Source: Veillonella parvula
Lineage (GTDB): Bacteria > Bacillota > Negativicutes > Veillonellales > Veillonellaceae
DNA: 64,000 nucleotides
NCBI GenBank assembly: GCA_018382475.1
Contig: JAGZPX010000002.1
Location: 251,525-315,524, forward strand
Direction of reading: 5' to 3'
Shown: positions 19,868 to 33,593 of the stretch, piece after piece
Layout: each line of letters begins with the position of its first letter
Numbering within the stretch: position 1 is the first letter of the stretch
Notes under the pieces: generated by a model
Database searches by the model: none
The model's input: only the letters and a program-made list of their open reading frames with translations
What the model was told of the DNA's origin: nothing
Translations under genes and position numbers: made by a program

Positions 19868-21091
19868 CTAATTCATATGCATAAACCAGATGCCACTATA
19901 AGAGAATGGCAAGAATTTGTCATAGAACTCTTTAAGCGTAGCTTCAGGATCTACATCCGCAAACTCTTCAGGATAGAAGGTTTTTGCTAAATATTCGAAT
20001 ACGGCTGCATCAAAGACTTCACGTGGAAGACCGTGGTGCGCAGAGTAAACTTGTTTATTTTCAACAGCTTTTAATTCGCTCCAACCTTGACGTTCTATGG
20101 TGAAAGCTTTCAACAACTCTTGAGACGATGCTTCGGTTGCTTCAAAACCTAAACGCATAGAGGTTGGTTTCTTAGGCCAGTAAGAACCCATGATCATTAT
20201 GATATCTGGATTTTTCTCAAGTATAAACTCTGGATTAATAGGAGACGTTTTCTTAATAACATCCTTGGTGATGACATCAGCACCAGCCATAGTAGCTAAT
20301 GCCCCCCAAGAGTAATTACTACTAAAGGAATTACCAAATTCTTCCGGACCATTCATACCAACTTCAAGATAAACTGTTGGTTTTGGTTTGTTAATTTTAC
20401 TAACACGATCGAGAACTCTTGTCACACGCTCTGTATAGAACTTGTTAATCTCTGCAGCACGTTCTTCTTTACCTAAAGCTTTACCAATAGCTTCAATGGA
20501 TTTTTGATGACTTTCCAGTTTTTCTGCATGGTAATCTATGTAAATAGTCTGAATACCAGCAGCATCCATTTTTGCTTTTGCATCAGACTCGTACTGATCT
20601 TTCAAATCAACAGGGATAAAAATAACATCTGGATTTAATGCCACAACTTGCTCAGCATTAAATGTTTTATCACCGACTGTACCCACTACTGGAATCTTAG
20701 CTAGCTCAGGCATTTCCGTAGTGAAGTGTTTCCACATATCCGCCCTGTAATCCTGCAAAGATGTATCCATACCGGCGATAACCTTTGGCGTATCCTTGCC
20801 CATAAGTGCGGAAATCGTAAAGAATGGACCACCAGCACCACTCCACTGTAAGACAACTCTCTCTGCTGGCTTTTTAAGCGTTACCGTACGTCCTGTTACG
20901 TCTGTGATTTCGATTGGCTTGTTATTTTGCGCCGTATCTTTCTTTGTCTCACTAGGACCTCCACATGCAGCGATGAGCATACTAACAATTAGGAGGAAAA
21001 CCGTGGCTATGTAAGCCATACATTTTCTTTTCTGTTTAACCATGAAATACCTCTCTTCTCTCAAACTAAAACTATCACTATAAGTGCACAT
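19868..21091 (-). CDS. periplasmic substrate-binding lipoprotein (BtuF-like), paralog B
   Basis: Lipobox IAACGG. Tandem paralog of 18594..19784. The probable start is ~21043. Confidence 0.8.
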   Translation of the reverse strand: MCTYSDSFSLREERYFMVKQKRKCMAYIATVFLLIVSMLIAACGGPSETKKDTAQNNKPIEITDVTGRTVTLKKPAERVVLQWSGAGGPFFTISALMGKDTPKVIAGMDTSLQDYRADMWKHFTTEMPELAKIPVVGTVGDKTFNAEQVVALNPDVIFIPVDLKDQYESDAKAKMDAAGIQTIYIDYHAEKLESHQKSIEAIGKALGKEERAAEINKFYTERVTRVLDRVSKINKPKPTVYLEVGMNGPEEFGNSFSSNYSWGALATMAGADVITKDVIKKTSPINPEFILEKNPDIIMIMGSYWPKKPTSMRLGFEATEASSQELLKAFTIERQGWSELKAVENKQVYSAHHGLPREVFDAAVFEYLAKTFYPEEFADVDPEATLKEFYDKFLPFSYSGIWFMHMN

Positions 21092-23035: not shown

Positions 23036-23866
23036 TTAGGTGTGTGACACAACTTCCTTAGGATTCCACCAAATTATAGCAGACCGCGAGGAAATCAAGC
23101 ATTTATTGTCCTTAGATTTGGCTATGATTTCTTTTTTGATTTGTTCCTCTGCTGCTGGCGTTAAGTCTCCATAGTACTGTTCGTATATGATCTTTCGGCA
23201 CTCGATTTCATCTTTTACAGTACGTTCACATCTATAATCAATGATGCTTACATTGGGTGAGCGCCCTTGTGAAAGTAACATATTATACAGAATTTGAAAC
23301 TCTTGTACATCAGATTTGCTAGCTTCCCGAGGATTCTTCCAATCAGGAATGCCAGCTACGATTGCACAATAGCCTTTAGAATATTGTTCCATTTGTAAAA
23401 GCCGAGGCCACACATCAGGGAACATCCAAAGCACAAGAGATATGGTTACCAGATCAAATCGAAAATCTGGAGAGCCGTCTTGAGGTAAGTCCTGCACCAA
23501 TTCTTCAATGATATTAATGTTCTCAACGTTTAATTCTTTGGCATTTTCTTTAAGGACTGCCACCATGCCCTTTGACGGCTCAATAGCAGTAACAGACTGT
23601 ATGTGCTGTGCAAATGGAATAGTAAAAGACCCAGGGCCTGCACCTATATCTAGCATGGTAGAATCAGGATTTAACACACTACTCAAAGCAGCGTACACCT
23701 TACGACCAAAGTCGTAGTCATTGCTTTTACGCATGAGAGAAAAGTCATTGGCTCGCTTGTCCCAATACTCTAATAATGGATTCGCCCGAATCCCTTTCTC
23801 ACGATCATAATAACTTTGTTTCCACATTTCATTCCAGAACGAAAAATCTGTAACTTGCGGTGCCAT
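23036..23866 (-). CDS. class I SAM-dependent methyltransferase (small-molecule type)
   Basis: Motif I LDIGAGPGSFT. No DNA-MTase DPPY/NPPF motifs. 276 aa. Confidence 0.75.
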   Translation of the reverse strand: MAPQVTDFSFWNEMWKQSYYDREKGIRANPLLEYWDKRANDFSLMRKSNDYDFGRKVYAALSSVLNPDSTMLDIGAGPGSFTIPFAQHIQSVTAIEPSKGMVAVLKENAKELNVENINIIEELVQDLPQDGSPDFRFDLVTISLVLWMFPDVWPRLLQMEQYSKGYCAIVAGIPDWKNPREASKSDVQEFQILYNMLLSQGRSPNVSIIDYRCERTVKDEIECRKIIYEQYYGDLTPAAEEQIKKEIIAKSKDNKCLISSRSAIIWWNPKEVVSHT

Positions 23867-23881
23867 ACGAAACCTCCTGAC

Positions 23882-24184
23882 TTAATCTAAATTCCTCATT
23901 TCTCGGATAAACTCTTCTGCCTCTTGCAGATTCTTAGGGAACTCAAAATAAATACATTGCTCATGTCCACAATAAGGATTACGGAAGTCATAGCCGCTCA
24001 ATAACAAATACTCGATGATTTTCCATTCTTTGTCATTAGATTTTTTAGGAGCCTTGAACTTCTCGTTCACAAAGTACATCTTGCTTTTGCATGTAGGACA
24101 AATTTTGTTTTTATTGAACAGCTCGTAGTTTGTGCCCTCCGACAAGGAGATCCGACAATTTACACATACATTTTTATAGCCCAT
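23882..24184 (-). CDS. small zinc-ribbon protein (CxxC...CxxC), unknown function
   Basis: CVNCRIS...CPTCKS in a 100-aa ORF, 3 bp downstream of the previous gene. AT-rich. Confidence 0.4.
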   Translation of the reverse strand: MGYKNVCVNCRISLSEGTNYELFNKNKICPTCKSKMYFVNEKFKAPKKSNDKEWKIIEYLLLSGYDFRNPYCGHEQCIYFEFPKNLQEAEEFIREMRNLD

Positions 24185-24186
24185 AA

Positions 24187-24522
24187 CTATTTACTCCCAT
24201 ATGGTTTATGTTGAAAGATTTCTTTTACAATCCCTTCACCAACAATATTTCCGCCTTCCATTATAAAGAACTCAGTACCTGCTTGTAGAGCTGAATAATC
24301 TATGGTTTCATATACTGGTAAAGCGTTAGCTTGAATAGGTTTATCAAAGATAACATCTTCACCATCAATAAAATTGATACCAAGATATTCCTCAGTACCT
24401 TTTATAACAAAATGAGGATAGTATATTCCATTATTTAAATTCGGTGGAGTTCTCCTCTTCTTGCTGAAGAAAGTAACAGTACAGCCAATAGTAAAATCTA
24501 AATTACTCATTTCGGGCCTCAT
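24187..24522 (-). CDS. hypothetical protein (has a partial duplicate at 25200-25451)
   Basis: ORF of 111 aa. Its 5' end and ~50 bp of upstream sequence are repeated almost exactly at 25400-25490. Confidence 0.45.
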   Translation of the reverse strand: MRPEMSNLDFTIGCTVTFFSKKRRTPPNLNNGIYYPHFVIKGTEEYLGINFIDGEDVIFDKPIQANALPVYETIDYSALQAGTEFFIMEGGNIVGEGIVKEIFQHKPYGSK

Positions 24523-24652
24523 TCAACTACATATACCATATCACCTTTATAGTATATCCGAGGAAAAACTAAATTGCTCTATGTTAAGATTATCTAATCA
24601 ATCTAGAACCTTTTTAAAAATTTTCTTATCTTCTAAAACTATATTATATATT

Positions 24653-25162
24653 TTAACCAAAAAGACTTTTATAAAGCCCTTTAATTTCTCGTGCGTATTT
24701 CACTGCACCAGGAAGATGCATTCGTTTATAGTAATCTCCTAATATTTCTGTATGATTTTTCAAAATATCAAATTCAATCATATACATAGCAATACTCGTT
24801 ATAGAATATTTTCCTATCTCAAGTATAGTTGATTTATCTTCTATATCTAATTCCTCGCCTTTTGGAAATTCACCATCAGAATATTCTTCCCAAGTTTCAT
24901 CACTGTATTGCCAAAAGGCTTTACTCCAAAGAATCAGTTCTTTACGATTATATTCTATTAATTGCTCGAAAAACTGCACTAACTCTTTCTCAGAATATAA
25001 CTTGCAATTAAACCCTTCTAATAAGAATTGCCTTTGATTCAATCGATTTCTTAGTTCTTGAATTTCTATACTTTGTAGTTCTTTATTAAAGTTATCAGGT
25101 CCTAATTCCTCTATAATATCTAAATATATATGGCTATCTAAAAATTCTTTTAAAGTTTCCAT
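24653..25162 (-). CDS. hypothetical protein
   Basis: ORF of 169 aa, acidic, no recognisable motifs. Confidence 0.4.
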   Translation of the reverse strand: METLKEFLDSHIYLDIIEELGPDNFNKELQSIEIQELRNRLNQRQFLLEGFNCKLYSEKELVQFFEQLIEYNRKELILWSKAFWQYSDETWEEYSDGEFPKGEELDIEDKSTILEIGKYSITSIAMYMIEFDILKNHTEILGDYYKRMHLPGAVKYAREIKGLYKSLFG

Positions 25163-25199
25163 ATTCTTACGTCCTTACAGAATTAACACCTTCCATAAT

Positions 25200-25451
25200 A
25201 AAGAACTCCGTACCTGCTTTTAGAACAAAATAATTTACAATTTCAAAAACTAACAACATATTACCTCATATTTGTTTATCAAAGATGACATCTTTACTAC
25301 CATAAGGTTTATACCAAGACTCAGTACCTTTTATAATGATATGAGGATAGTACATTCCATAATTTAAATTCGGTAGACTTGTTCTCTTCTTGCTGAAGAA
25401 TGTAACTATGCAGCTAATAGTAAAATCTAAATTGCTCATCTCAGGCCTCAT
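25200..25451 (-). pseudogene. truncated, rearranged duplicate of the 24187..24522 gene
   Basis: The first ~45 codons are near-identical (MRPEMSNLDFTI(G/S)C(T/I)VTFFSKKR...). It then jumps to the paralog's C-terminal KPYGSK and an internal DVIFDK, and stops. Flanking DNA 25200-25260 retains homology to 24253-24310. Confidence 0.5.
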
Positions 25452-25858
25452 TCAACTACATATACCATATCGCCTTTAAAGTATATGTTCATTATACAGT
25501 GTACTGGATTCCCTTCGGTCCATAGCCAGCCCTGGAATACAGCGTTTCCCCAATTATAGGTCTCCGTAATGACCTCGAATTCACTTTCACTATAATCCTG
25601 TTGATACTGAGGCAACTCAATTCTTTTACCTGTGAAAGTATCTAGTATTGTATTATTAAATACTAAGATTTCAAAAAAATCTATATCGCACGTCTCAAAT
25701 ACAACTTGAGCCTTATGAGTTTGTTCAACACCATTCTCATAAGAGAAAATGTAATCAAAAGTAAAGATCAAATTATCATCTGCGTATTCTATTTTCTGTA
25801 CCCTTGCATCATGGAGAGAATATTTGGAATACTCGCCAAAAGATTTTATTGTTTTCAT
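25448..25858 (-). CDS. hypothetical protein
   Basis: ORF of 136 aa, no recognised motifs. It overlaps the truncated duplicate by 4 nt. Confidence 0.4.
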   Translation of the reverse strand: MKTIKSFGEYSKYSLHDARVQKIEYADDNLIFTFDYIFSYENGVEQTHKAQVVFETCDIDFFEILVFNNTILDTFTGKRIELPQYQQDYSESEFEVITETYNWGNAVFQGWLWTEGNPVHCIMNIYFKGDMVYVVE

Positions 25859-26097
25859 AGAACCTCGTTACATAATTAACAATACTATAATCTAAAATTC
25901 AATTAATTTGAGCCTATTTTATTAATTCTTTTCATCTAATATTGTATCATGTAATGCATAACACTTAATCTTATATAATAATTGGGATGGTGTATATAAC
26001 ACTATCCCAATACATGCACTTTAATTGTTTAATAAAGTTATATTTTAAGATTATTCTCAATATCAGATAAATTCCCCGAGTTATGTAAGCATATAAT

Positions 26098-27666
26098 TTA
26101 ATTAGAACGATTTTTATTCCATCCAGTTTTTATCTGTGAATCAATGAAGCTTACATCTGCCATCTTCATTTTTTTCCAGTCTCCAGCTAAATTACCATAA
26201 GTCAAAACTTCATAACAAAATAACCAATAACGATCCATATCAGTCTTTTTCAACTTTCTTGCAAGCTCGTTAAATGGTTTTACTTGAGTTGCATCTCGTT
26301 TTCCTCTATTAATTTTCATAAAGTAAATCCAACTCATAACTAATAGCAAACAATCTTTACTATTAAAAACATAATCTTTCACACTAGACCAATCATTATC
26401 AAATGCGTCTAGTTCAAAATCAAATTTTATTGCAAAATAAATAGCATAACACAAGCTTTCATAATCATTTATTTTCACTGCATCCTGATATATAGCATCT
26501 GAAAATCTTTTAATTTCTTCTTTATCTACCTTATATGGTTCAAATACAAATTCTTCCATTAAAGGAAGTAAATATGGATAAAGGATCGCTAAATGCATAA
26601 ATCTTTTTGTAGCTAATAGCTTTCCATTTTTTGATTTATTTAACCCCCTTAATGTTTTAATAGCATAATTTATAATCGCACAATCACCACTTTCCACTGC
26701 AAGTTTTAAAGCTGTATCTATAAATGTATTAACCTGAGTATATTTTAATATTCCTGAATTACTGCCTCCGATTAGCCCTTTAAGAGTATGCTTCCAAGTC
26801 TTATCTACACCAATTGGTAGCTCAACTACTTTTGTTTTCTTATGATTGAGGTGTAAGTCAAATTCATATAATGCTTCCTCAAGATCAACAATAAAACGTT
26901 GTGCATCCTTGTGACTTTTAACATAGCAATCATAATCATCTATAGCCCTAACATAACGATAACCTTTCTCATATAGTTTCCTATCAACAACCGTTAAAAT
27001 AATTTCTGAAAGTATATTGGAAGAATGAGGCCCGATAAGAATTCCATGTGTTTCACCATGATGCATATCGGAACATGCACTATCAATTTCGTTATACCAG
27101 GCACTGCTATCCTTATGATTTTTTTTAGCCGTTTCTTTTCCCACTAATGCCCAAGGTATTGAGTGACTATAAATACTTGGAAAGCATGTAGATATATCTG
27201 CTTTAACTAAATACCTACTAGCACCATCTTCATGAAATAGTAAGTCCAACTCTGGATTACCATCAGTACGCCAGTCTTTATAATTCATTTCAAAGATTCG
27301 ACGCTTTCCAGATTCTTTTCGAATATGAATACGACTAATACGATGTTTCTGATTAGCAGTTTGAGTATGAAAGTGTTGTTTTATCTTAGCCCAGTTTGAC
27401 TTTAGCTCTAAGCATAACAATTGATACTTGAATGGGTTAGGGATTCCCATAATACGTGGTGTACCTATATTTCGCATTACTCGAAAGCTTATATACTCAT
27501 TCCATCCTGAGGAAAATGAGGTTTCTAAACCTTTACAATACTCAAAAAATGGAACAGCAGTAAATACAGGAGGTAGTTTTTCTGCAAAAAAACCATATGC
27601 AAGAAGCCCTTCATATAATTCATCTTCAGATATTTCATCCATAAAATCTGTATATTTTTTAGACAT
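26098..27666 (-). CDS. defence-associated reverse transcriptase (Abi/UG class; family unresolved)
   Basis: RT motif A YLVKADISTCFPSIY, motif B HGILIGPHSSNILSEIIL, motif C YVRAIDDYD, motif D/E FDLHLNHKKTKVV. Followed by a ~200-aa helical C-terminal domain. 522 aa. Confidence 0.75.
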   Translation of the reverse strand: MSKKYTDFMDEISEDELYEGLLAYGFFAEKLPPVFTAVPFFEYCKGLETSFSSGWNEYISFRVMRNIGTPRIMGIPNPFKYQLLCLELKSNWAKIKQHFHTQTANQKHRISRIHIRKESGKRRIFEMNYKDWRTDGNPELDLLFHEDGASRYLVKADISTCFPSIYSHSIPWALVGKETAKKNHKDSSAWYNEIDSACSDMHHGETHGILIGPHSSNILSEIILTVVDRKLYEKGYRYVRAIDDYDCYVKSHKDAQRFIVDLEEALYEFDLHLNHKKTKVVELPIGVDKTWKHTLKGLIGGSNSGILKYTQVNTFIDTALKLAVESGDCAIINYAIKTLRGLNKSKNGKLLATKRFMHLAILYPYLLPLMEEFVFEPYKVDKEEIKRFSDAIYQDAVKINDYESLCYAIYFAIKFDFELDAFDNDWSSVKDYVFNSKDCLLLVMSWIYFMKINRGKRDATQVKPFNELARKLKKTDMDRYWLFCYEVLTYGNLAGDWKKMKMADVSFIDSQIKTGWNKNRSN

Positions 27667-27754
27667 TTTAGTTTTACTCCCTAATTCTTATAATTCACCC
27701 CATAAAAACAAAAATATTATATGAAATTATATAATGAATTTTATCTTTATCAAT

Positions 27755-29662
27755 TCAACTAATTGAAGAAACAGGTAAAACATTTTCTTCACCAAAAAAT
27801 TCTTTCGCTTTACCTAATATTTCAGAATCTTGAGTAGGTAAATATATTATTAAATTCCTTTTTGCTCTCGTTATGCATACATAAAATAATTTTTTCGTTC
27901 TTTTCTGAACAGTAGGGTTTGGAGATCCTTTTCCAAATAATGTATTAAAATCGTATTTATTCCAATTAGACTCTAATATAAGAAGTACATTGTCATATTC
28001 ACTCCCCTTTACACTATGTTGAGTACAAATTGGTGAAAATTCTTTTAAGTATAATATACTTTTTCTATATTGCTTAAATGTTATCCGTTTTATTCTCTCC
28101 CATAAATAAAATCCTGCATTTAAAATATAGTCACTAAATAAATCATCTTCGTCGAGTAATCCCTTTTCTTCTGCAAACGATAAAACTTCTTCTATCGTTT
28201 TATCATCTTCTTTTACAAGATAATCAATTGCTTGCTTAAGACAAATCTTATCCTCTCTATTACGAATAGAAAATTTTGTTATTCGTAAAAACTCATTAAA
28301 TTTATCATCCTCATATAATTCGATAATCTCCTCTAATATATCTAATCTACGTAAGATCCTATCTCTATAAGAATTAGCTTCATATTTACCACTCATTCCG
28401 TTTAATTTATATGACATAAGGGATTCCTTGGTGACTCTACATTTTGCGTAAGCTTCTACCCATGACATATCTGCTAAAATCCTATATACTGACTGATAAG
28501 TATCATCTCTATTAATTTGATCCAGCAAATCTTCTCTATTAAATATTGGTTTCTCCTCTAACGCCAACTCTCCCAAAGTCTTATCATTATCTAAACCACC
28601 CTTATCAATCTTTCCTTTTATCTTGCTTATAAGCGTAGTTATCAAATCAGCATTATATAGATCATATAAATCTTTAAAGCCAGCCATTTCAGCATTATAT
28701 TTATGTGTTAACCTTAACTCTTTGGTTTGTTTTCCATTAGAAAAATCCCAAAAATCAAAAATCGCTTTTTTCTTTATACTAATAAAATCATCTGGTTCAT
28801 TTCCATATAAAAATTTAATACTACCCGCTCTAATAGTACCATTCTCCATATTAGGTGCATTTATATCTTCTGAAGGTATTTGCTCGATACCATCATCTCT
28901 AAATTTATTAGCTACTTCTATTACAACTCTTGGATTTCTTCGATTTTGTTTCTTTACTATTTTAGTTAATCTATATTGAGTTAAATCACCAACTCCATTG
29001 TCATATATAGCCTGCATTGAATCCCCAAAAAAACCGATTACATTTTTTTTACTGCTTTGCTTTAAATGTTTTAATAAAATATCAGCTACTAAGGGACTCG
29101 TATCTTGATATTCATCAACAAAAATACAATCTGCACTATCCTTCAAAATATCTGCCATTTTTTTGTATTTCTCAAACATTTTTTCTGCAATAGTTATAAT
29201 ATGATCATGGCTAATTTTAACTACATTTTTATCATTTGGTGTTACAGAGTAATACTCGTCATAATCTACATAAAATTCTTTAAAATAATCTTTATAAATT
29301 AACTCCTCACCATAATCTTTTGGTTTTTTAAAGCTTTTTTCGCCTTCATCATTAATAAGTTCAGTTAAAATATTCTTAATTTCATCTTGATATTTTCCAA
29401 TAAGACTCCATATAAACTCATGAATTGTTGATACCCTAAGATTCTCATTTTCTATTCTTGACAAAATTTCTGCAACTGCATTATTTGTATATGTAATGCA
29501 AACTATCCTAATATTCGGTAATTCCTCTGTAAGAGTATTTATCAAAGAAATCAACGAATATGTTTTTCCACTTCCAGCTCCGCCTTCTATAATAAAATTT
29601 TCACCATTTTTTATACATTGAAGAGCTTTCAAAACTTCTTTTTCTAATTGTTTCGTAGCCAT
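27755..29662 (-). CDS. gajB: UvrD/PcrA-like SF1 helicase, Gabija GajB homolog
   Basis: Walker A GGAGSGKT, motif Ia ITYTNNAVAEI, motif II VDEYQDTSP, HSVKGSEYDNV, motif VI YVCITRAKRNL. All collinear with GajB/UvrD. It overlaps the upstream gene by 19 nt. Confidence 0.8.
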   Translation of the reverse strand: MATKQLEKEVLKALQCIKNGENFIIEGGAGSGKTYSLISLINTLTEELPNIRIVCITYTNNAVAEILSRIENENLRVSTIHEFIWSLIGKYQDEIKNILTELINDEGEKSFKKPKDYGEELIYKDYFKEFYVDYDEYYSVTPNDKNVVKISHDHIITIAEKMFEKYKKMADILKDSADCIFVDEYQDTSPLVADILLKHLKQSSKKNVIGFFGDSMQAIYDNGVGDLTQYRLTKIVKKQNRRNPRVVIEVANKFRDDGIEQIPSEDINAPNMENGTIRAGSIKFLYGNEPDDFISIKKKAIFDFWDFSNGKQTKELRLTHKYNAEMAGFKDLYDLYNADLITTLISKIKGKIDKGGLDNDKTLGELALEEKPIFNREDLLDQINRDDTYQSVYRILADMSWVEAYAKCRVTKESLMSYKLNGMSGKYEANSYRDRILRRLDILEEIIELYEDDKFNEFLRITKFSIRNREDKICLKQAIDYLVKEDDKTIEEVLSFAEEKGLLDEDDLFSDYILNAGFYLWERIKRITFKQYRKSILYLKEFSPICTQHSVKGSEYDNVLLILESNWNKYDFNTLFGKGSPNPTVQKRTKKLFYVCITRAKRNLIIYLPTQDSEILGKAKEFFGEENVLPVSSIS

Positions 29663-31701
29663 AATAAGCCCTCCTCAATATATTGCGGAACGTTCCACTT
29701 TTCATTCTCTTGTCCATTTTCATCATCAAAATACAATAAACTTGATGCAAATGCAGATTTCTTTGCTACTTTATTCAAAGCAAAATTATAATAATCACTT
29801 GAAATATCGGATTCATTAAAATTCTTTAAAGCTCCATATTCATATAGTCCTTCTTTATTCTTTAATATAAATTCTTTATTTAAGGCTATAAAGGCATCTT
29901 CAAAACTACTTGCCTGATATCCACCATCAGTTTCTGGTACTTGGTATGCTATTCGAATGTTATCTTGAATTTTATCCTCTGATCTTTTTTCTACAAGTTC
30001 CCTAAATTGATTCTCCGATGTATCAAGGCCAGCATATTTAAAAAAAATTTTAATAGAAGCATTGCTTGTATACTTTGCATCTTTAGGATGTGACTTCACA
30101 TATTTTCCATCATCATTTTTATTCGCAGCATCTATATCTGTAATTATCAAAACCTTAATTCCTAAAAAATCAAACAATGGAACAAAAACATGTGAATGTG
30201 CTCCAGCTTCTATTACAGAAATATTTTGTGATAATAACGGTACAATATCTCCTGATGAAGTTTCTTTATTATCAATCTTATGCATCATCATCGGCATTAA
30301 GATTCTTTCAGTATCCCCCTCTATACAAATAGCTTTATCGGCAAAAAAAAGCTCACTTCTATTTATTGTCAAATATTGCTTTACAAACTTAAATCCTTGC
30401 TGTTCATCTCCACCATACTTATCTTTTAAAGAATTAAAACTTTTTGCTATAACCTCATTCCCTTCTCTCTTTAAATATATGATGTCATCAAAATTACATT
30501 CAGAAACTATATGTGATGAATGCGAAGTAATTAAAATCTGTAACTGTTTATTCTTTTCACGCAGAAACTTATTTCTATGTGTTGCAATATGTGATTTTAT
30601 ATTTCTTATAAATACATACTGTAACTGAGGATGTGTATGTGCTTCAGGTTCTTCAATATATAAGAGATTTATATCTGCTGGCTGTTCAAACAATTCCTGT
30701 ATTTTAGTTTCAATTTCAAACAAAATGCCTATTAAATTTAAATACCCCAATCCATTATAAGTTTCAGGAAGTGAACAATCTTCACCTTGTCTATAACTTA
30801 AATTTGTATTATCTGACAATAAATTTTTCTCTGAAATAGATGACTCTATTGCTATATCAATTCCACTTTCTGTACCACCATAATTTTTTATGACACCTAT
30901 AACATCGCTAAAAATACCATCAATAGATTCTCCACTTTCACTTTGTTCCCCATTATAAATCTTATATAATTCTTTGTCGGCTTCCTCCAGTGTTTCTTCA
31001 AGTTTTGTAAATATTAATCCACTTTCATCTTTGGCGGCTTTATAAGAACTAAAATATTTACTTGTTAAGCCTGATAGAACATGGTTACGATCATCATTAG
31101 AAACTGCTCTATCAGCTCTTATTCCTAAGACTTTAATTACTTTTTGAATATCCTTATTATCAATTTCCTCTGATCTAGCTGATGTAATTTGATCAGATTC
31201 AATATCAAAGCCCCTTGAGTATTTTTTAGTTTCAAAATAATTGGAAAAATTCTTACTAATAAATTTAGAAAAAGATACAAAATTCTCAATTTTCTTCTCT
31301 TTTATTATATCTTTTAGTTTTATAATTTTATTTATAGGCATTATCGAAATAAATTCTAAAACTATAATATTATTATCCGGATTTAAATCCATCATAAATT
31401 TTTGTATATTTCTATATGAATCATTTTCATTATACTCAATAAATAATTTCAAATTAACAGCTTCTAATGATGCAACCGAATCCTGCTCAGATATAATATT
31501 CTTATATATATCTTTCTGACACTCTAAATTTATATCTTCCCACATTATTTTGGATGAATTTAGCATCTTATCCATAATAATCAACGCAGAAGTCTTTCCA
31601 CAATTATTTTTACCTATGACTAACGATAACTCTTCTTTAAACTCTAATTCGAAATTTTTTAGTAGTCTAAAGTTTTTAACCAACATCTTTTTTAAATACA
31701 T
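29644..31701 (-). CDS. gajA: OLD-family ATPase-TOPRIM nuclease, Gabija GajA homolog (class 2 OLD)
   Basis: N-terminus KNFRLLKNFELEF...IGKNNCGKTS (Walker A), Walker B LLYIEEPEAHTHPQLQ, TOPRIM CIEGDTERIL and LIITDIDAANKND. Partnered with a UvrD-like helicase. Confidence 0.8.
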   Translation of the reverse strand: MYLKKMLVKNFRLLKNFELEFKEELSLVIGKNNCGKTSALIIMDKMLNSSKIMWEDINLECQKDIYKNIISEQDSVASLEAVNLKLFIEYNENDSYRNIQKFMMDLNPDNNIIVLEFISIMPINKIIKLKDIIKEKKIENFVSFSKFISKNFSNYFETKKYSRGFDIESDQITSARSEEIDNKDIQKVIKVLGIRADRAVSNDDRNHVLSGLTSKYFSSYKAAKDESGLIFTKLEETLEEADKELYKIYNGEQSESGESIDGIFSDVIGVIKNYGGTESGIDIAIESSISEKNLLSDNTNLSYRQGEDCSLPETYNGLGYLNLIGILFEIETKIQELFEQPADINLLYIEEPEAHTHPQLQYVFIRNIKSHIATHRNKFLREKNKQLQILITSHSSHIVSECNFDDIIYLKREGNEVIAKSFNSLKDKYGGDEQQGFKFVKQYLTINRSELFFADKAICIEGDTERILMPMMMHKIDNKETSSGDIVPLLSQNISVIEAGAHSHVFVPLFDFLGIKVLIITDIDAANKNDDGKYVKSHPKDAKYTSNASIKIFFKYAGLDTSENQFRELVEKRSEDKIQDNIRIAYQVPETDGGYQASSFEDAFIALNKEFILKNKEGLYEYGALKNFNESDISSDYYNFALNKVAKKSAFASSLLYFDDENGQENEKWNVPQYIEEGLLWLRNN

Positions 31702-31892
31702 TTAAAACACTCCCCTTTTTATAAATAATCATATCACTTGATTATTCCACAATTATTTCAGCATAATAATCTAAAATGTGGTATTGGTTATAATATTTTA
31801 TTGATTTTTAATATACTTTGATACTTAAATAGGCTGTACAAATCGCCCTGCCTAATTACATGTCAACTCCTTTATATATTCAATCAAAATAG

Positions 31893-31932
31893 TAAAAAAG
31901 CCTCCCATCAAAATGATAGGAGGCTTTTATGC
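31893..31932. terminator. bidirectional terminator 3' of guaA, at the island boundary
   Basis: aaaaagcctcccatcaaaatgataggaggctttt. Confidence 0.5.
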
Positions 31933-32039
31933 ACTCTTCAAATCCAAAACTCTCCCTTTCAAACTTATTCTTTTACCTTTCAGTTGAATTCAGAATTACT
32001 CAAAAAGTACAGTTAATGAATTTAAATCAATATTTCTTA

Positions 32040-33593
32040 TTATTCCCACTCAATTGTAGCAGGTGGTTTAGATGTAATATCGTACACGATACGGTTAATG
32101 TGTTGTACTTCGTTTACGATACGACGGGAGATTGTGTCCAATATGTCGTAAGGGATGCGTGCCCAGTCAGCAGTCATGAAGTCTGTTGTTGTTACGCCAC
32201 GCAATGCCAATGTGTAGTCATATGTACGGAAGTCACCCATAACGCCTACGGTACGTGTAGATGTTAATACTGCAAAGTATTGGTTGATACTGCGATCAAG
32301 GCCAGCTTTTGCAATTTCATCACGGAAGATGTAGTCCGCATCACGCAAGATGTCGAGTTTGTCTTTAGTGATTTCACCCATTACGCGGATAGCAAGACCA
32401 GGTCCTGGGAATGGTTGACGCCATACGAGATAATCAGCCAAACCTAATTCGGAACCAAGTTCACGCACTTCATCTTTGAATAGGTTGCGCAATGGTTCGA
32501 TAAGGCCTTTGAAGTCTACAACTGCAGGCAAGCCACCTACGTTGTGATGAGATTTAATAACTTCTGCTTCGCCGGTACCAGACTCGATAACGTCAGGGTA
32601 GATTGTACCTTGCGCTAAGTAGTCAACGGAACCGATTTTACGACCTTCGTCTTCGAATACGCGGATGAATTCTTCACCGATAGCTTTACGTTTAGCTTCT
32701 GGATCTTCAAGACCAGCCAATTTATCTAAGAAACGTTTTTCTGCATCGACGCGAATGAAATGCATGCCGGAATCTTTGAAAGCTGCTTCTACTTCGTCGC
32801 CTTCGTTTTTACGCATTAAACCGTGGTCAACGAAGATACAAGTCAATTGGTCACCTACAGCTTTAGAAATAAGAGCTGCTGCAACGGAGCTGTCTACACC
32901 GCCGGACAAAGCCAATAATACTTTGCCGTCACCAACGGTTTTGCGGATATCTTCAATAGCAGATTTCGCATAGTTTGCCATTGTCCATGTGCCTGTGAAG
33001 CCACATACTTCGTACAAGAAGTTGTGAAGCATTTCTTTACCATGTTCAGTGTGCAACACTTCTGCATGGTATTGCATAGCATATAATTTACGTTCTTTAT
33101 TTTGCATGGATGCAACAGGACAATCCTTCGTATGTGCTACGATTTCAAAGCCTTCAGGAACTTTTGCTACATAGTCAACATGAGACATCCAAACAACTTG
33201 GTCTTCTTCCAAACCTTTGAACAATGGAGATGTAGTATCCACTTTAGTAGGTGTTTTACCGAATTCACGGTTGTCCGCAGATTTAACTTCGCCACCCAAT
33301 GTATGCGCCATAAATTGCATACCATAGCACATGCCAAGAATAGGAATACCAAGTTCAAAAATCTCTTTCTCAATTTTTGGAGAGTTTTCTTCATACACGC
33401 TGTTAGGACCGCCTGTGAAGATGATACCTTGCGGTTTTAATTCCTTAATTTTTTCCAGCGCTTTGTTGTATGGATATACTTCGCAGTATACGTGATTTTC
33501 ACGAACACGGCGCGCGATCAATTGGTTATATTGACCACCAAAGTCAACAACAATTACAAATTCCTTGTTTTCCATGCCTTCCTCCATATGCAT
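32040..33593 (-). CDS. guaA: GMP synthase (glutamine-hydrolysing)
   Basis: N-terminal GATase ([17 protein letters not shown]), ATP-PPase SGGVDSSV, and the C-terminal dimerisation domain ending ...PPATIEWE. The likely start is ~33575 (MENKEF), immediately after GGAGGAAGG. Confidence 0.9.

Follow-up and report, generated by a model that had tools for sequence, protein, structure and literature searches.

A 64,000-nucleotide (nt) stretch of Veillonella parvula DNA, hereafter the window, carries a gene for a reverse transcriptase (RT) directly behind gajA and gajB, the two genes of a Gabija defence system, and the question raised by this locus is whether the three genes work as one unit or whether the RT is a defence system in its own right. 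The first-pass annotation had described a 522-amino-acid (aa) RT in the same orientation as gajAB and 88 bp beyond the end of gajB, and it was correct in coordinates, sizes and orientation:

26098..27666, minus strand: RT gene, a 522-codon open reading frame (ORF) with an ATG start, encoding 522 aa and assigned here to DRT4 (UG15)
27667..27754, minus strand: intergenic gap between gajB and the RT gene, 88 nt, with a promoter-like site and a ribosome-binding site (AGGGAG)
27755..29662, minus strand: gajB, matched over its full length by PADLOC GajB (E 2.6e-236) and by Pfam UvrD-helicase and AAA_19
29644..31701, minus strand: gajA, matched over its full length by PADLOC GajA (E 5.7e-230) and by Pfam AAA_15 and OLD-like_TOPRIM

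GajA (ATPase and TOPRIM) and GajB (a UvrD-like helicase) are adjacent, with full-length matches and in the usual overlapping arrangement of Gabija, the two genes sharing 19 nt on the same strand as the RT gene, which lies downstream of gajB. Canonical Gabija consists of two genes and works as GajA and GajB alone; an RT is, to our knowledge, not a known component. We conclude that the gene very probably encodes a stand-alone DRT4 defence RT beside an independent Gabija system, the two being held together by clustering and by linked inheritance within one island lineage, and not by membership in a three-gene machine.

Within class 1 of the UG/Abi reverse transcriptases, the RT belongs to DRT4/UG15; it is neither DRT2-like nor Abi-P2. 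Its residues 1–512 align with positions 1–504 of the 506 in the PADLOC Drt4 profile PDLC02178 at 670.5 bits (E 4.7e-202), and a second PADLOC Drt4 model, PDLC03752, scores 548 bits; the other PADLOC families trail, with Drt6 at 302 bits (E 1.8e-90) followed by UG30, UG14, AbiK (136 bits) and AbiP2 (114 bits). Pfam RVT_1 matches the ORF at 37.6 bits, for a cut-off of 29.6. The top sequence matches in the PDB are chains of Escherichia coli DRT4/UG15 (E 2e-46, query residues 15–486), and the top Foldseek matches of an AlphaFold model are likewise UG15/DRT4 structures (9vdo/9l9s, TM 0.74–0.81), the TM value against 9vdo_A being 0.77 when normalised on the query and 0.81 on the target, with DRT6, AbiK and Abi-P2 behind. 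DRT6/UG12, AbiK and Abi-P2 share the combination of an RT with an alphaRep fold (TM 0.5–0.78) and differ in that their PADLOC matches are far weaker than that of Drt4; all are class 1 UG/Abi enzymes with protein-primed, untemplated synthesis and hexameric assemblies, while DRT2 is a class 2 enzyme templated by a non-coding RNA (ncRNA). The proposal of an Abi/UG-class defence RT therefore stands; its refinement to an Abi-P2/DRT2-like protein named the right class as far as Abi-P2 is concerned (class 1, together with AbiK), and the wrong family.

The AlphaFold model, built on an alignment of 36 relatives, has a pLDDT of 79 and a pTM of 0.81 and comprises two parts, the fingers and palm of the RT (residues ~1–285) and a C-terminal alphaRep domain (residues ~290–505, pLDDT around 90), whose helices occupy residues 290–502; the predicted ~200-aa helical C-terminal domain is thereby recovered. 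This domain aligns to the alphaRep of the solved DRT4, the sequence alignment running through residue 486. The solved enzyme, DRT4/UG15 of E. coli 12-c8-a (PDB 9vdo, 9ltm and 9l9s; PMC12783706), has the same organisation, with a fingers/palm RT and an alphaRep that replaces the thumb, it is of similar length (540 aa vs 522 aa), and single-gene occurrence in many contexts is common to both; its host is E. coli, unlike the Veillonella-like Negativicute considered here.

We mapped the residues described for the E. coli enzyme (PMC12783706) onto the window RT through a HMMER alignment, and judged their conservation in the alignment of 36 relatives. In E. coli DRT4, D149, D240 and D241 are catalytic, Tyr125 is the priming residue and is absolutely conserved in 174 DRT4 systems, K24, S26, R75, N124, N271, K274, Y238 and Y337 contact dNTP or DNA, and F140, E202 and H204 are oligomer contacts (PMC12783706). 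The counterparts in the window RT are as follows:

Catalytic Asp: D149 corresponds to D157 (motif A), and D240/D241 to D243/D244 (motif C)
Priming Tyr: Y125 corresponds to Y129, within a conserved MNY
Other contacts: R75 corresponds to R71, N124 to N128, N271 to N274, K274 to K277, and Y337 to Y334
Oligomer contacts: F140 corresponds to F144, and E202/H204 to E205/H207

Y129, D157, D243, D244, R71, N274, K277, Y334, E205 and H207 are invariant in the 36 relatives, N128 is nearly so, and F144 is not conserved among them.

The same domain organisation bears on a possible origin of the gene in a group II intron or a retron. Weak RT-domain matches do exist, to the group II RT/maturase model TIGR04416 (53.9 bits) and to the retron St85 RT (26.4 bits), but both scores lie far under the respective cut-offs of 300 and 235 bits, and the C-terminal domain is alphaRep instead of a maturase or thumb. 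An Rfam search of the 64-kb window at gathering thresholds found no group II intron RNA and no retron (msr/msd) RNA, and nothing near the RT. Membership in either group has a negligible probability.

Several features fit less well with an assignment to DRT4 as it has been characterised, and weigh against it. The NCBIfam Drt4 equivalog NF041749 scores 381.3 bits (E 8e-114), below its cut-off of 450, albeit still three times the score of the next model, Drt3b, at 120 bits, and identity to the characterised E. coli enzyme is only 27–28%. In the YIDD motif C of E. coli DRT4, Tyr238 stacks on the 3' end of the product (PMC12783706); the motif reads AIDD in the window RT (A241) and NIDD in the consensus of its clade, so that both Asp are kept and the equivalent of Tyr238 is missing. 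The claim that the catalytic motifs are intact thus stands for D157, D243 and D244 and has to be amended at motif C, which is not YxDD. Finally, a six-residue loop that bears K24 and S26 in E. coli is absent from the window RT and from its clade. The missed NCBIfam cut-off and these residue differences, in motif C and in the K24/S26 loop, therefore place the RT in a divergent DRT4 subclade, which by its sequence matches is large and already covered by a PADLOC model of its own; 1925 homologues were found at E<=1e-10, the best 120 of them being 63–100% identical to the window RT.

Comparison with related loci and contigs, labelled with L-numbers, indicates in addition that the gene is a mosaic. 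Relative to L063, nucleotide identity is 62–81% over 27676..26477 and 97–98% from 26476 onwards, and relative to L001 the pattern is inverted, with 93–98% over 27644..26445 and 69% from 26444 onwards. The 5' ~1190 nt (27666..~26477) thus correspond to the allele of L001 and L094 (93–98%), and the remainder to a different one:

26098..26476, minus strand: 3' third of the RT gene (last ~125 codons, ~380 nt, C-terminal part of alphaRep), a different, L063-like allele

This 3' part, the gap downstream of the gene and the small ORFs that follow (o136, o61 and o169) match L063 at 93–99%. On these alignments, two DRT4 alleles have been joined in frame near 26477 by recombination to give the window RT, which suggests that DRT4 alleles are shuffled within the alphaRep domain.

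The chimeric structure of the gene, together with AIDD in place of YIDD and the score below the NCBIfam cut-off, could be taken as signs of a DRT4 copy in decay or without activity, a recombinant whose motif C has degenerated and which can no longer polymerise. Decay of both Gabija and RT is suggested for at least one relative from the island: at L104:6001-9554, gajB (query 1–526) and the RT (query 173–517) give truncated matches. We regard inactivation of the window gene as quite improbable: its reading frame of 522 codons is intact, two full-length alleles having been joined in frame; all metal-binding, dNTP-binding and priming residues are conserved; the fold is predicted with confidence; and a residue other than Tyr in motif C is the rule in the clade, to which the best 120 of the 1925 homologues belong.

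For E. coli DRT4, protein-primed, template-independent synthesis of single-stranded DNA (ssDNA) has been described, with toxicity once a phage DNA-binding protein protects the ssDNA; the system requires neither an ncRNA nor a partner, and DRT4 alone is experimentally sufficient (PMC12783706). UG15 is also listed as stand-alone in the UG/Abi survey (PMC9226505). By homology, the window RT would most likely assemble into a hexamer, use its own Tyr129 as the primer for DNA synthesis and make random-sequence ssDNA without a template or an ncRNA. Host exonucleases would normally clear this product; when a phage DNA-binding protein shields its 3' end, the ssDNA would accumulate and become toxic, and the infected cell would die (abortive infection).

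Genomic context also speaks for autonomy. Species-representative genomes searched with the RT alignment yielded 55 loci, 40 of which have at least 4.1 kb of sequence upstream, room enough for GajAB. TBLASTN with GajA and GajB of the window detected the pair in only two of the 55 (L001 and L012); both are among these 40, of which 38 were without it. Conversely, metagenomes searched with GajB gave 51 loci (47–91% identity), in 37 of which the sequence continues for 1 kb or more past gajB; within the fetched flanks, the RT was absent from 31 of the 37 (GajB 47–84% identical), many of which carry a GajB 78–84% identical to that of the window, as close as in the RT-bearing loci. The six loci with an RT (L069, L082, L089, L094, L095 and L104) all belong to the same type of island, and a guaA match with 97–100% aa identity to that of the window is visible in four of them. 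Co-occurrence of RT and GajAB across independent lineages, as a three-gene variant of Gabija would show, was not found in either scan.

The island in question lies downstream of a core gene, guaA, and coincides with a marked drop in GC content:

32040..33593, minus strand: guaA (GMP synthase), core gene, with Pfam GATase and GMP_synt_C
31928..31896, minus strand: intrinsic-terminator-like hairpin after guaA, a 15-pair stem followed by a T-run, at the upstream edge of the island

From 32000 towards 24000 the GC content falls from about 0.44 to 0.26–0.31, compared with about 0.40 elsewhere, and the low-GC stretch (~24000–32000), which holds gajA, gajB and the RT gene, begins right after the guaA hairpin. 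The window guaA is 98–99% identical at the aa level to that of Veillonella-labelled contigs. In Veillonella-type contigs, whose guaA is 97–99% identical to that of the window, the order guaA-gajA-gajB-RT-o136 is common; guaA-gajA-gajB-RT was observed in L012, L056-L062, L069, L082, L089, L094, L095 and L104, with GajA and GajB at 73–89% identity across these islands. The comparison indicates that adjacency of gajAB and the RT is conserved only within one Veillonella-type guaA island lineage; the adjacency noticed in the first pass is real inside these islands and was not found outside them.

L001 bears the label 'Solobacterium', and a transfer of the trio to another genus was considered on that ground and rejected, since L001 is a 16.8-kb member of a metagenome bin. 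Upstream of gajA it is 99.4% identical to L082, a contig with a guaA 99% identical to that of the window, and downstream, too, patches of it match the island of the window, making the bin label doubtful. In both L001 (4310-6000) and L082 (2306-3996), guaA and gajA are separated by ~1.7 kb with additional low-GC genes, ORFs of 182 aa and 278 aa.

Within the island, the RT also occurs without Gabija. L063 shows the 3' end of guaA (43 aa, 97.7%) and window-like ORFs downstream (o136 96%, o61 98%, o169 95%, o100 94%), and its RT is 75% identical to that of the window, while the place of GajAB is taken by a 788-aa SEC-C-domain protein encoded on the opposite strand. The same pair of SEC-C protein and RT is found in L126 and L127, with an RT allele 71% identical to the window's, on contigs too short to show guaA. 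In these variants, then, the RT is kept at the guaA hotspot without Gabija. The SEC-C gene of L063 (256-2622, minus strand) is matched in PADLOC only weakly, by a C-terminal motif (PDC-S12, E 3.7e-6), and could be an uncharacterised defence gene.

What speaks for a link between the two systems is the arrangement itself. The order gajAB-RT persists across RT alleles that are 82–88% and 63–64% identical to the window's, two deeply diverged classes, and co-selection could also yield such persistence; all three genes point the same way, and the 88-nt junction is conserved; and a terminator scan found no terminator-like site between gajB and the RT gene, so that co-transcription of the two is possible. 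GajB moreover matches, weakly, a PADLOC model for an 'RT-associated helicase' (RTasHel, E 3.8e-30). On these grounds GajAB and the RT might be parts of one three-gene functional unit, or a synergistic pair selected together; ssDNA made by DRT4, or its consumption of dNTPs, would for example feed GajB sensing and GajA activation.

We nevertheless consider such a unit or pair unlikely. The recurring loci represent one island lineage at one hotspot and are not independent; GajAB is missing from most RT loci of other genomes, the RT from most GajB loci, and in L063 and L126 the RT stands with the SEC-C protein in place of GajAB. DRT4 is, as said, sufficient alone, and the RT gene is set apart with a promoter-like site of its own, whereas gajA and gajB overlap. 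GajB scores 784 bits on GajB models as opposed to 103 bits on RTasHel. This last model possibly represents the helicase associated with UG35, a group in which an RT is likewise found next to a UvrD-family helicase (PMC9226505). UG35 RTs are described there as another UG group, with an N-terminal methyltransferase domain, and the window helicase differs from theirs in being a bona fide GajB paired with GajA. In the literature naming Gabija together with UG15 or DRT, the matching passages report no specific link between Gabija and DRT4. The functional GajAB-RT unit suggested in the first pass is thus not supported by the distribution of the genes.

In a more specific form of this idea, Gabija and DRT4 would be kept together in the Veillonella-type guaA islands by cooperation, through ssDNA or dNTP input to GajB or through mutual cover against phage inhibitors, which we judge very unlikely. 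Were it true, the protein-linked ssDNA of DRT4 or its dNTP consumption would lower, via GajB, the threshold for activation of the GajA nuclease, or, in the alternative form, each system would cover the other's phage-encoded inhibitor, and the gajAB-RT synteny across 63%-identical RT alleles would reflect selection and not linkage.

The stand-alone reading is compatible with the synteny, in that the island pattern fits cassette exchange by homologous recombination in a defence hotspot and functional coupling is not needed. The island as a whole is highly mosaic. Between L012 and the window, gajAB is mostly 84–94% identical at the nucleotide level (76–94% per 200-nt segment, if one variable stretch close to the gajA end is disregarded), and the RT gene is about 69% identical throughout. 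RT relatives adjoin guaA also in L003, L005, L008, L010, L024 and L123, and because of this recurrence in several other loci we regard the 3' flank of guaA as a recurrent defence hotspot in which DRT4, judging from the neighbouring genes, is found in varying company.

The gap that separates the RT gene from gajB contains a candidate promoter:

27753..27726, minus strand: sigma-70-like promoter candidate for the RT gene, TTGATA-16 nt-TATAAT, by consensus match, in the 88-nt gap

With 11 of 12 consensus positions, it is the top-scoring site in 23800..32100 (8.3 kb), and both hexamers as well as the ribosome-binding site of the gap are kept in the island relatives. Transcription of the RT gene from a promoter of its own, within this gap, is therefore probable.

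Both flanks of the RT gene also bear on the possibility that the enzyme works with a cognate ncRNA encoded beside it, as DRT2, DRT9 or retron RTs do. These are defence-associated RTs too, and differ from the class 1 window RT in needing an adjacent structured ncRNA, for which none was found or conserved here. At E<=1, no Rfam match was obtained in either RT flank within 25000..28000, in agreement with the absence of msr/msd or other ncRNA noted in the first pass. Upstream, the gap is conserved among island relatives and its homologues were found only in RT-bearing Gabija loci, but it shows no structure: it folds no better than expected from shuffled sequences (z-score -0.87), and RNAalifold on nine island copies gave -2.72 kcal/mol (covariation term -0.34), which supports no structure. 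A structured RNA in this gap was rejected as a candidate, compensatory changes being few and confined to closely related sequences.

The gap downstream of the RT gene, in which an RT-associated ncRNA had been proposed, contains a hairpin:

25859..26097, minus strand: gap between the RT gene and the next downstream ORF, 239 nt
26011..25981, minus strand: hairpin in this gap, -14.7 kcal/mol, z-score -3.0, with a weak U-tail, uncalled by the terminator scan

The gap as a whole folds moderately better than shuffled sequences (z-score -2.57). However, ~150 nt of it (26097..~25947) are missing from most island relatives, with RTs 63–88% identical to the window's (L001 and L012 aligned), and the full-length gap was found elsewhere only in L063, at 95.8% identity. 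In L063 the downstream cassette is 93–99% identical to that of the window and the 5' two-thirds of the RT gene are 62–81% identical (nucleotide); because L063 shares the extra segment with the cassette despite its diverged RT, the segment belongs to the downstream module and not to the RT. Its identity as a repeat or a miniature inverted-repeat transposable element was rejected, as BLASTN against the window and all loci gave no other copy. No flank similarity was found outside the island lineage, and class 1 UG/Abi RTs including DRT4 are described as untemplated and protein-primed (PMC12783706 and PMC13174585). A flank-encoded RNA partner is accordingly very improbable, and the downstream proposal falls; the hairpin is possibly the transcription terminator of the RT gene. 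The only Rfam hit obtained is a cobalamin riboswitch (RF00174, 21248..21436, minus strand, 83.7 bits) upstream of a 407-aa ORF (19868..21091) and unrelated to the RT.

The settings of the RT relatives agree with a single-gene system without a conserved partner: no cluster of neighbouring genes is present in more than 11 of the 55 RT loci, with the caveat that a Hypoth_Ymh gene overlaps the RT in a subset of the relatives with 66–71% identity. The largest clusters are genes of type I restriction-modification (R-M) systems. One relative with 69% identity stands alone between housekeeping genes; relatives at ~45% lie in type I R-M operons with the order hsdM-hsdS-[AbiJ_NTD4/PDC-S32 gene]-RT-hsdR (L021:6174-14688, L027:6252-14689 and about nine more loci); and others are found in an integrase/relaxase (mobilisable) element or beside TIR or type II R-M genes. 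In many of the 66–71% relatives, from other taxa, the next gene after the RT overlaps or abuts it (overlap <=35 nt) and encodes a ~270-aa Hypoth_Ymh protein (PF09509, HEPN-like; PADLOC PD-Lambda-3_B), for which the window has no gene:

L005:11535-12347, Hypoth_Ymh gene
L008:4640-5452, Hypoth_Ymh gene
L010:9459-10283, Hypoth_Ymh gene
L064:7538-8350, Hypoth_Ymh gene
L066:7538-8350, Hypoth_Ymh gene
L120:7538-8356, Hypoth_Ymh gene
L123:5732-6553, Hypoth_Ymh gene

These loci may represent a two-gene variant of DRT4 with a HEPN protein, of which the UG15 part of the UG/Abi survey (PMC9226505) makes no mention.

Downstream of the RT gene, the segment up to a methyltransferase gene consists of small ORFs (o136, o61, o169, o111 and o100) in combinations that differ among the relatives. 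The first of them accompanies the RT most constantly:

25448..25858, minus strand: o136, a 136-aa ORF with no match in Pfam, PADLOC, NCBIfam or PHROGs

Almost every island variant, the Gabija-less L063 included, has it behind the RT, and this holds for all three RT allele classes; it is 81–96% identical in L012, L056, L062, L063, L069, L082, L089, L094 and L104 and reduced to a 24-aa remnant in L001, and it was not found in the RT loci outside the guaA island. The possibility that o136 is a diverged Hypoth_Ymh partner was rejected, as the two show no similarity. Among the small downstream ORFs, nothing was found in Pfam or PADLOC, with marginal matches only for o111 (NCBIfam) and o100 (PHROGs); o61 (25266-25451) duplicates the N-terminal part of o111 (24187-24522) in truncated form. 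At the edge of the island, 23036-23866 (minus strand) encodes a 276-aa class I S-adenosylmethionine (SAM) methyltransferase that PADLOC 'mad2' matches in part (E 2.2e-18); its NCBIfam match is CpaM-like and misses the cut-off. In L056 and similar relatives a GNAT acetyltransferase is the first gene after o100, in the place of the methyltransferase.

The value of these results is mainly negative, in that a candidate Gabija-RT system and a new RT-associated ncRNA can be set aside. The gene itself can be annotated as DRT4/UG15, although the NCBI equivalog model would miss it. To specialists it is of interest as a member of a large DRT4 subclade that is without the Tyr of YIDD yet keeps the priming Tyr, and as an indication that DRT4 alleles recombine within the alphaRep domain. 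At the level of the genome, the 3' side of guaA is a recurrent defence hotspot, and the company of DRT4 there varies between lineages of Bacillota (Firmicutes), from Gabija to R-M, TIR or HEPN-like genes.

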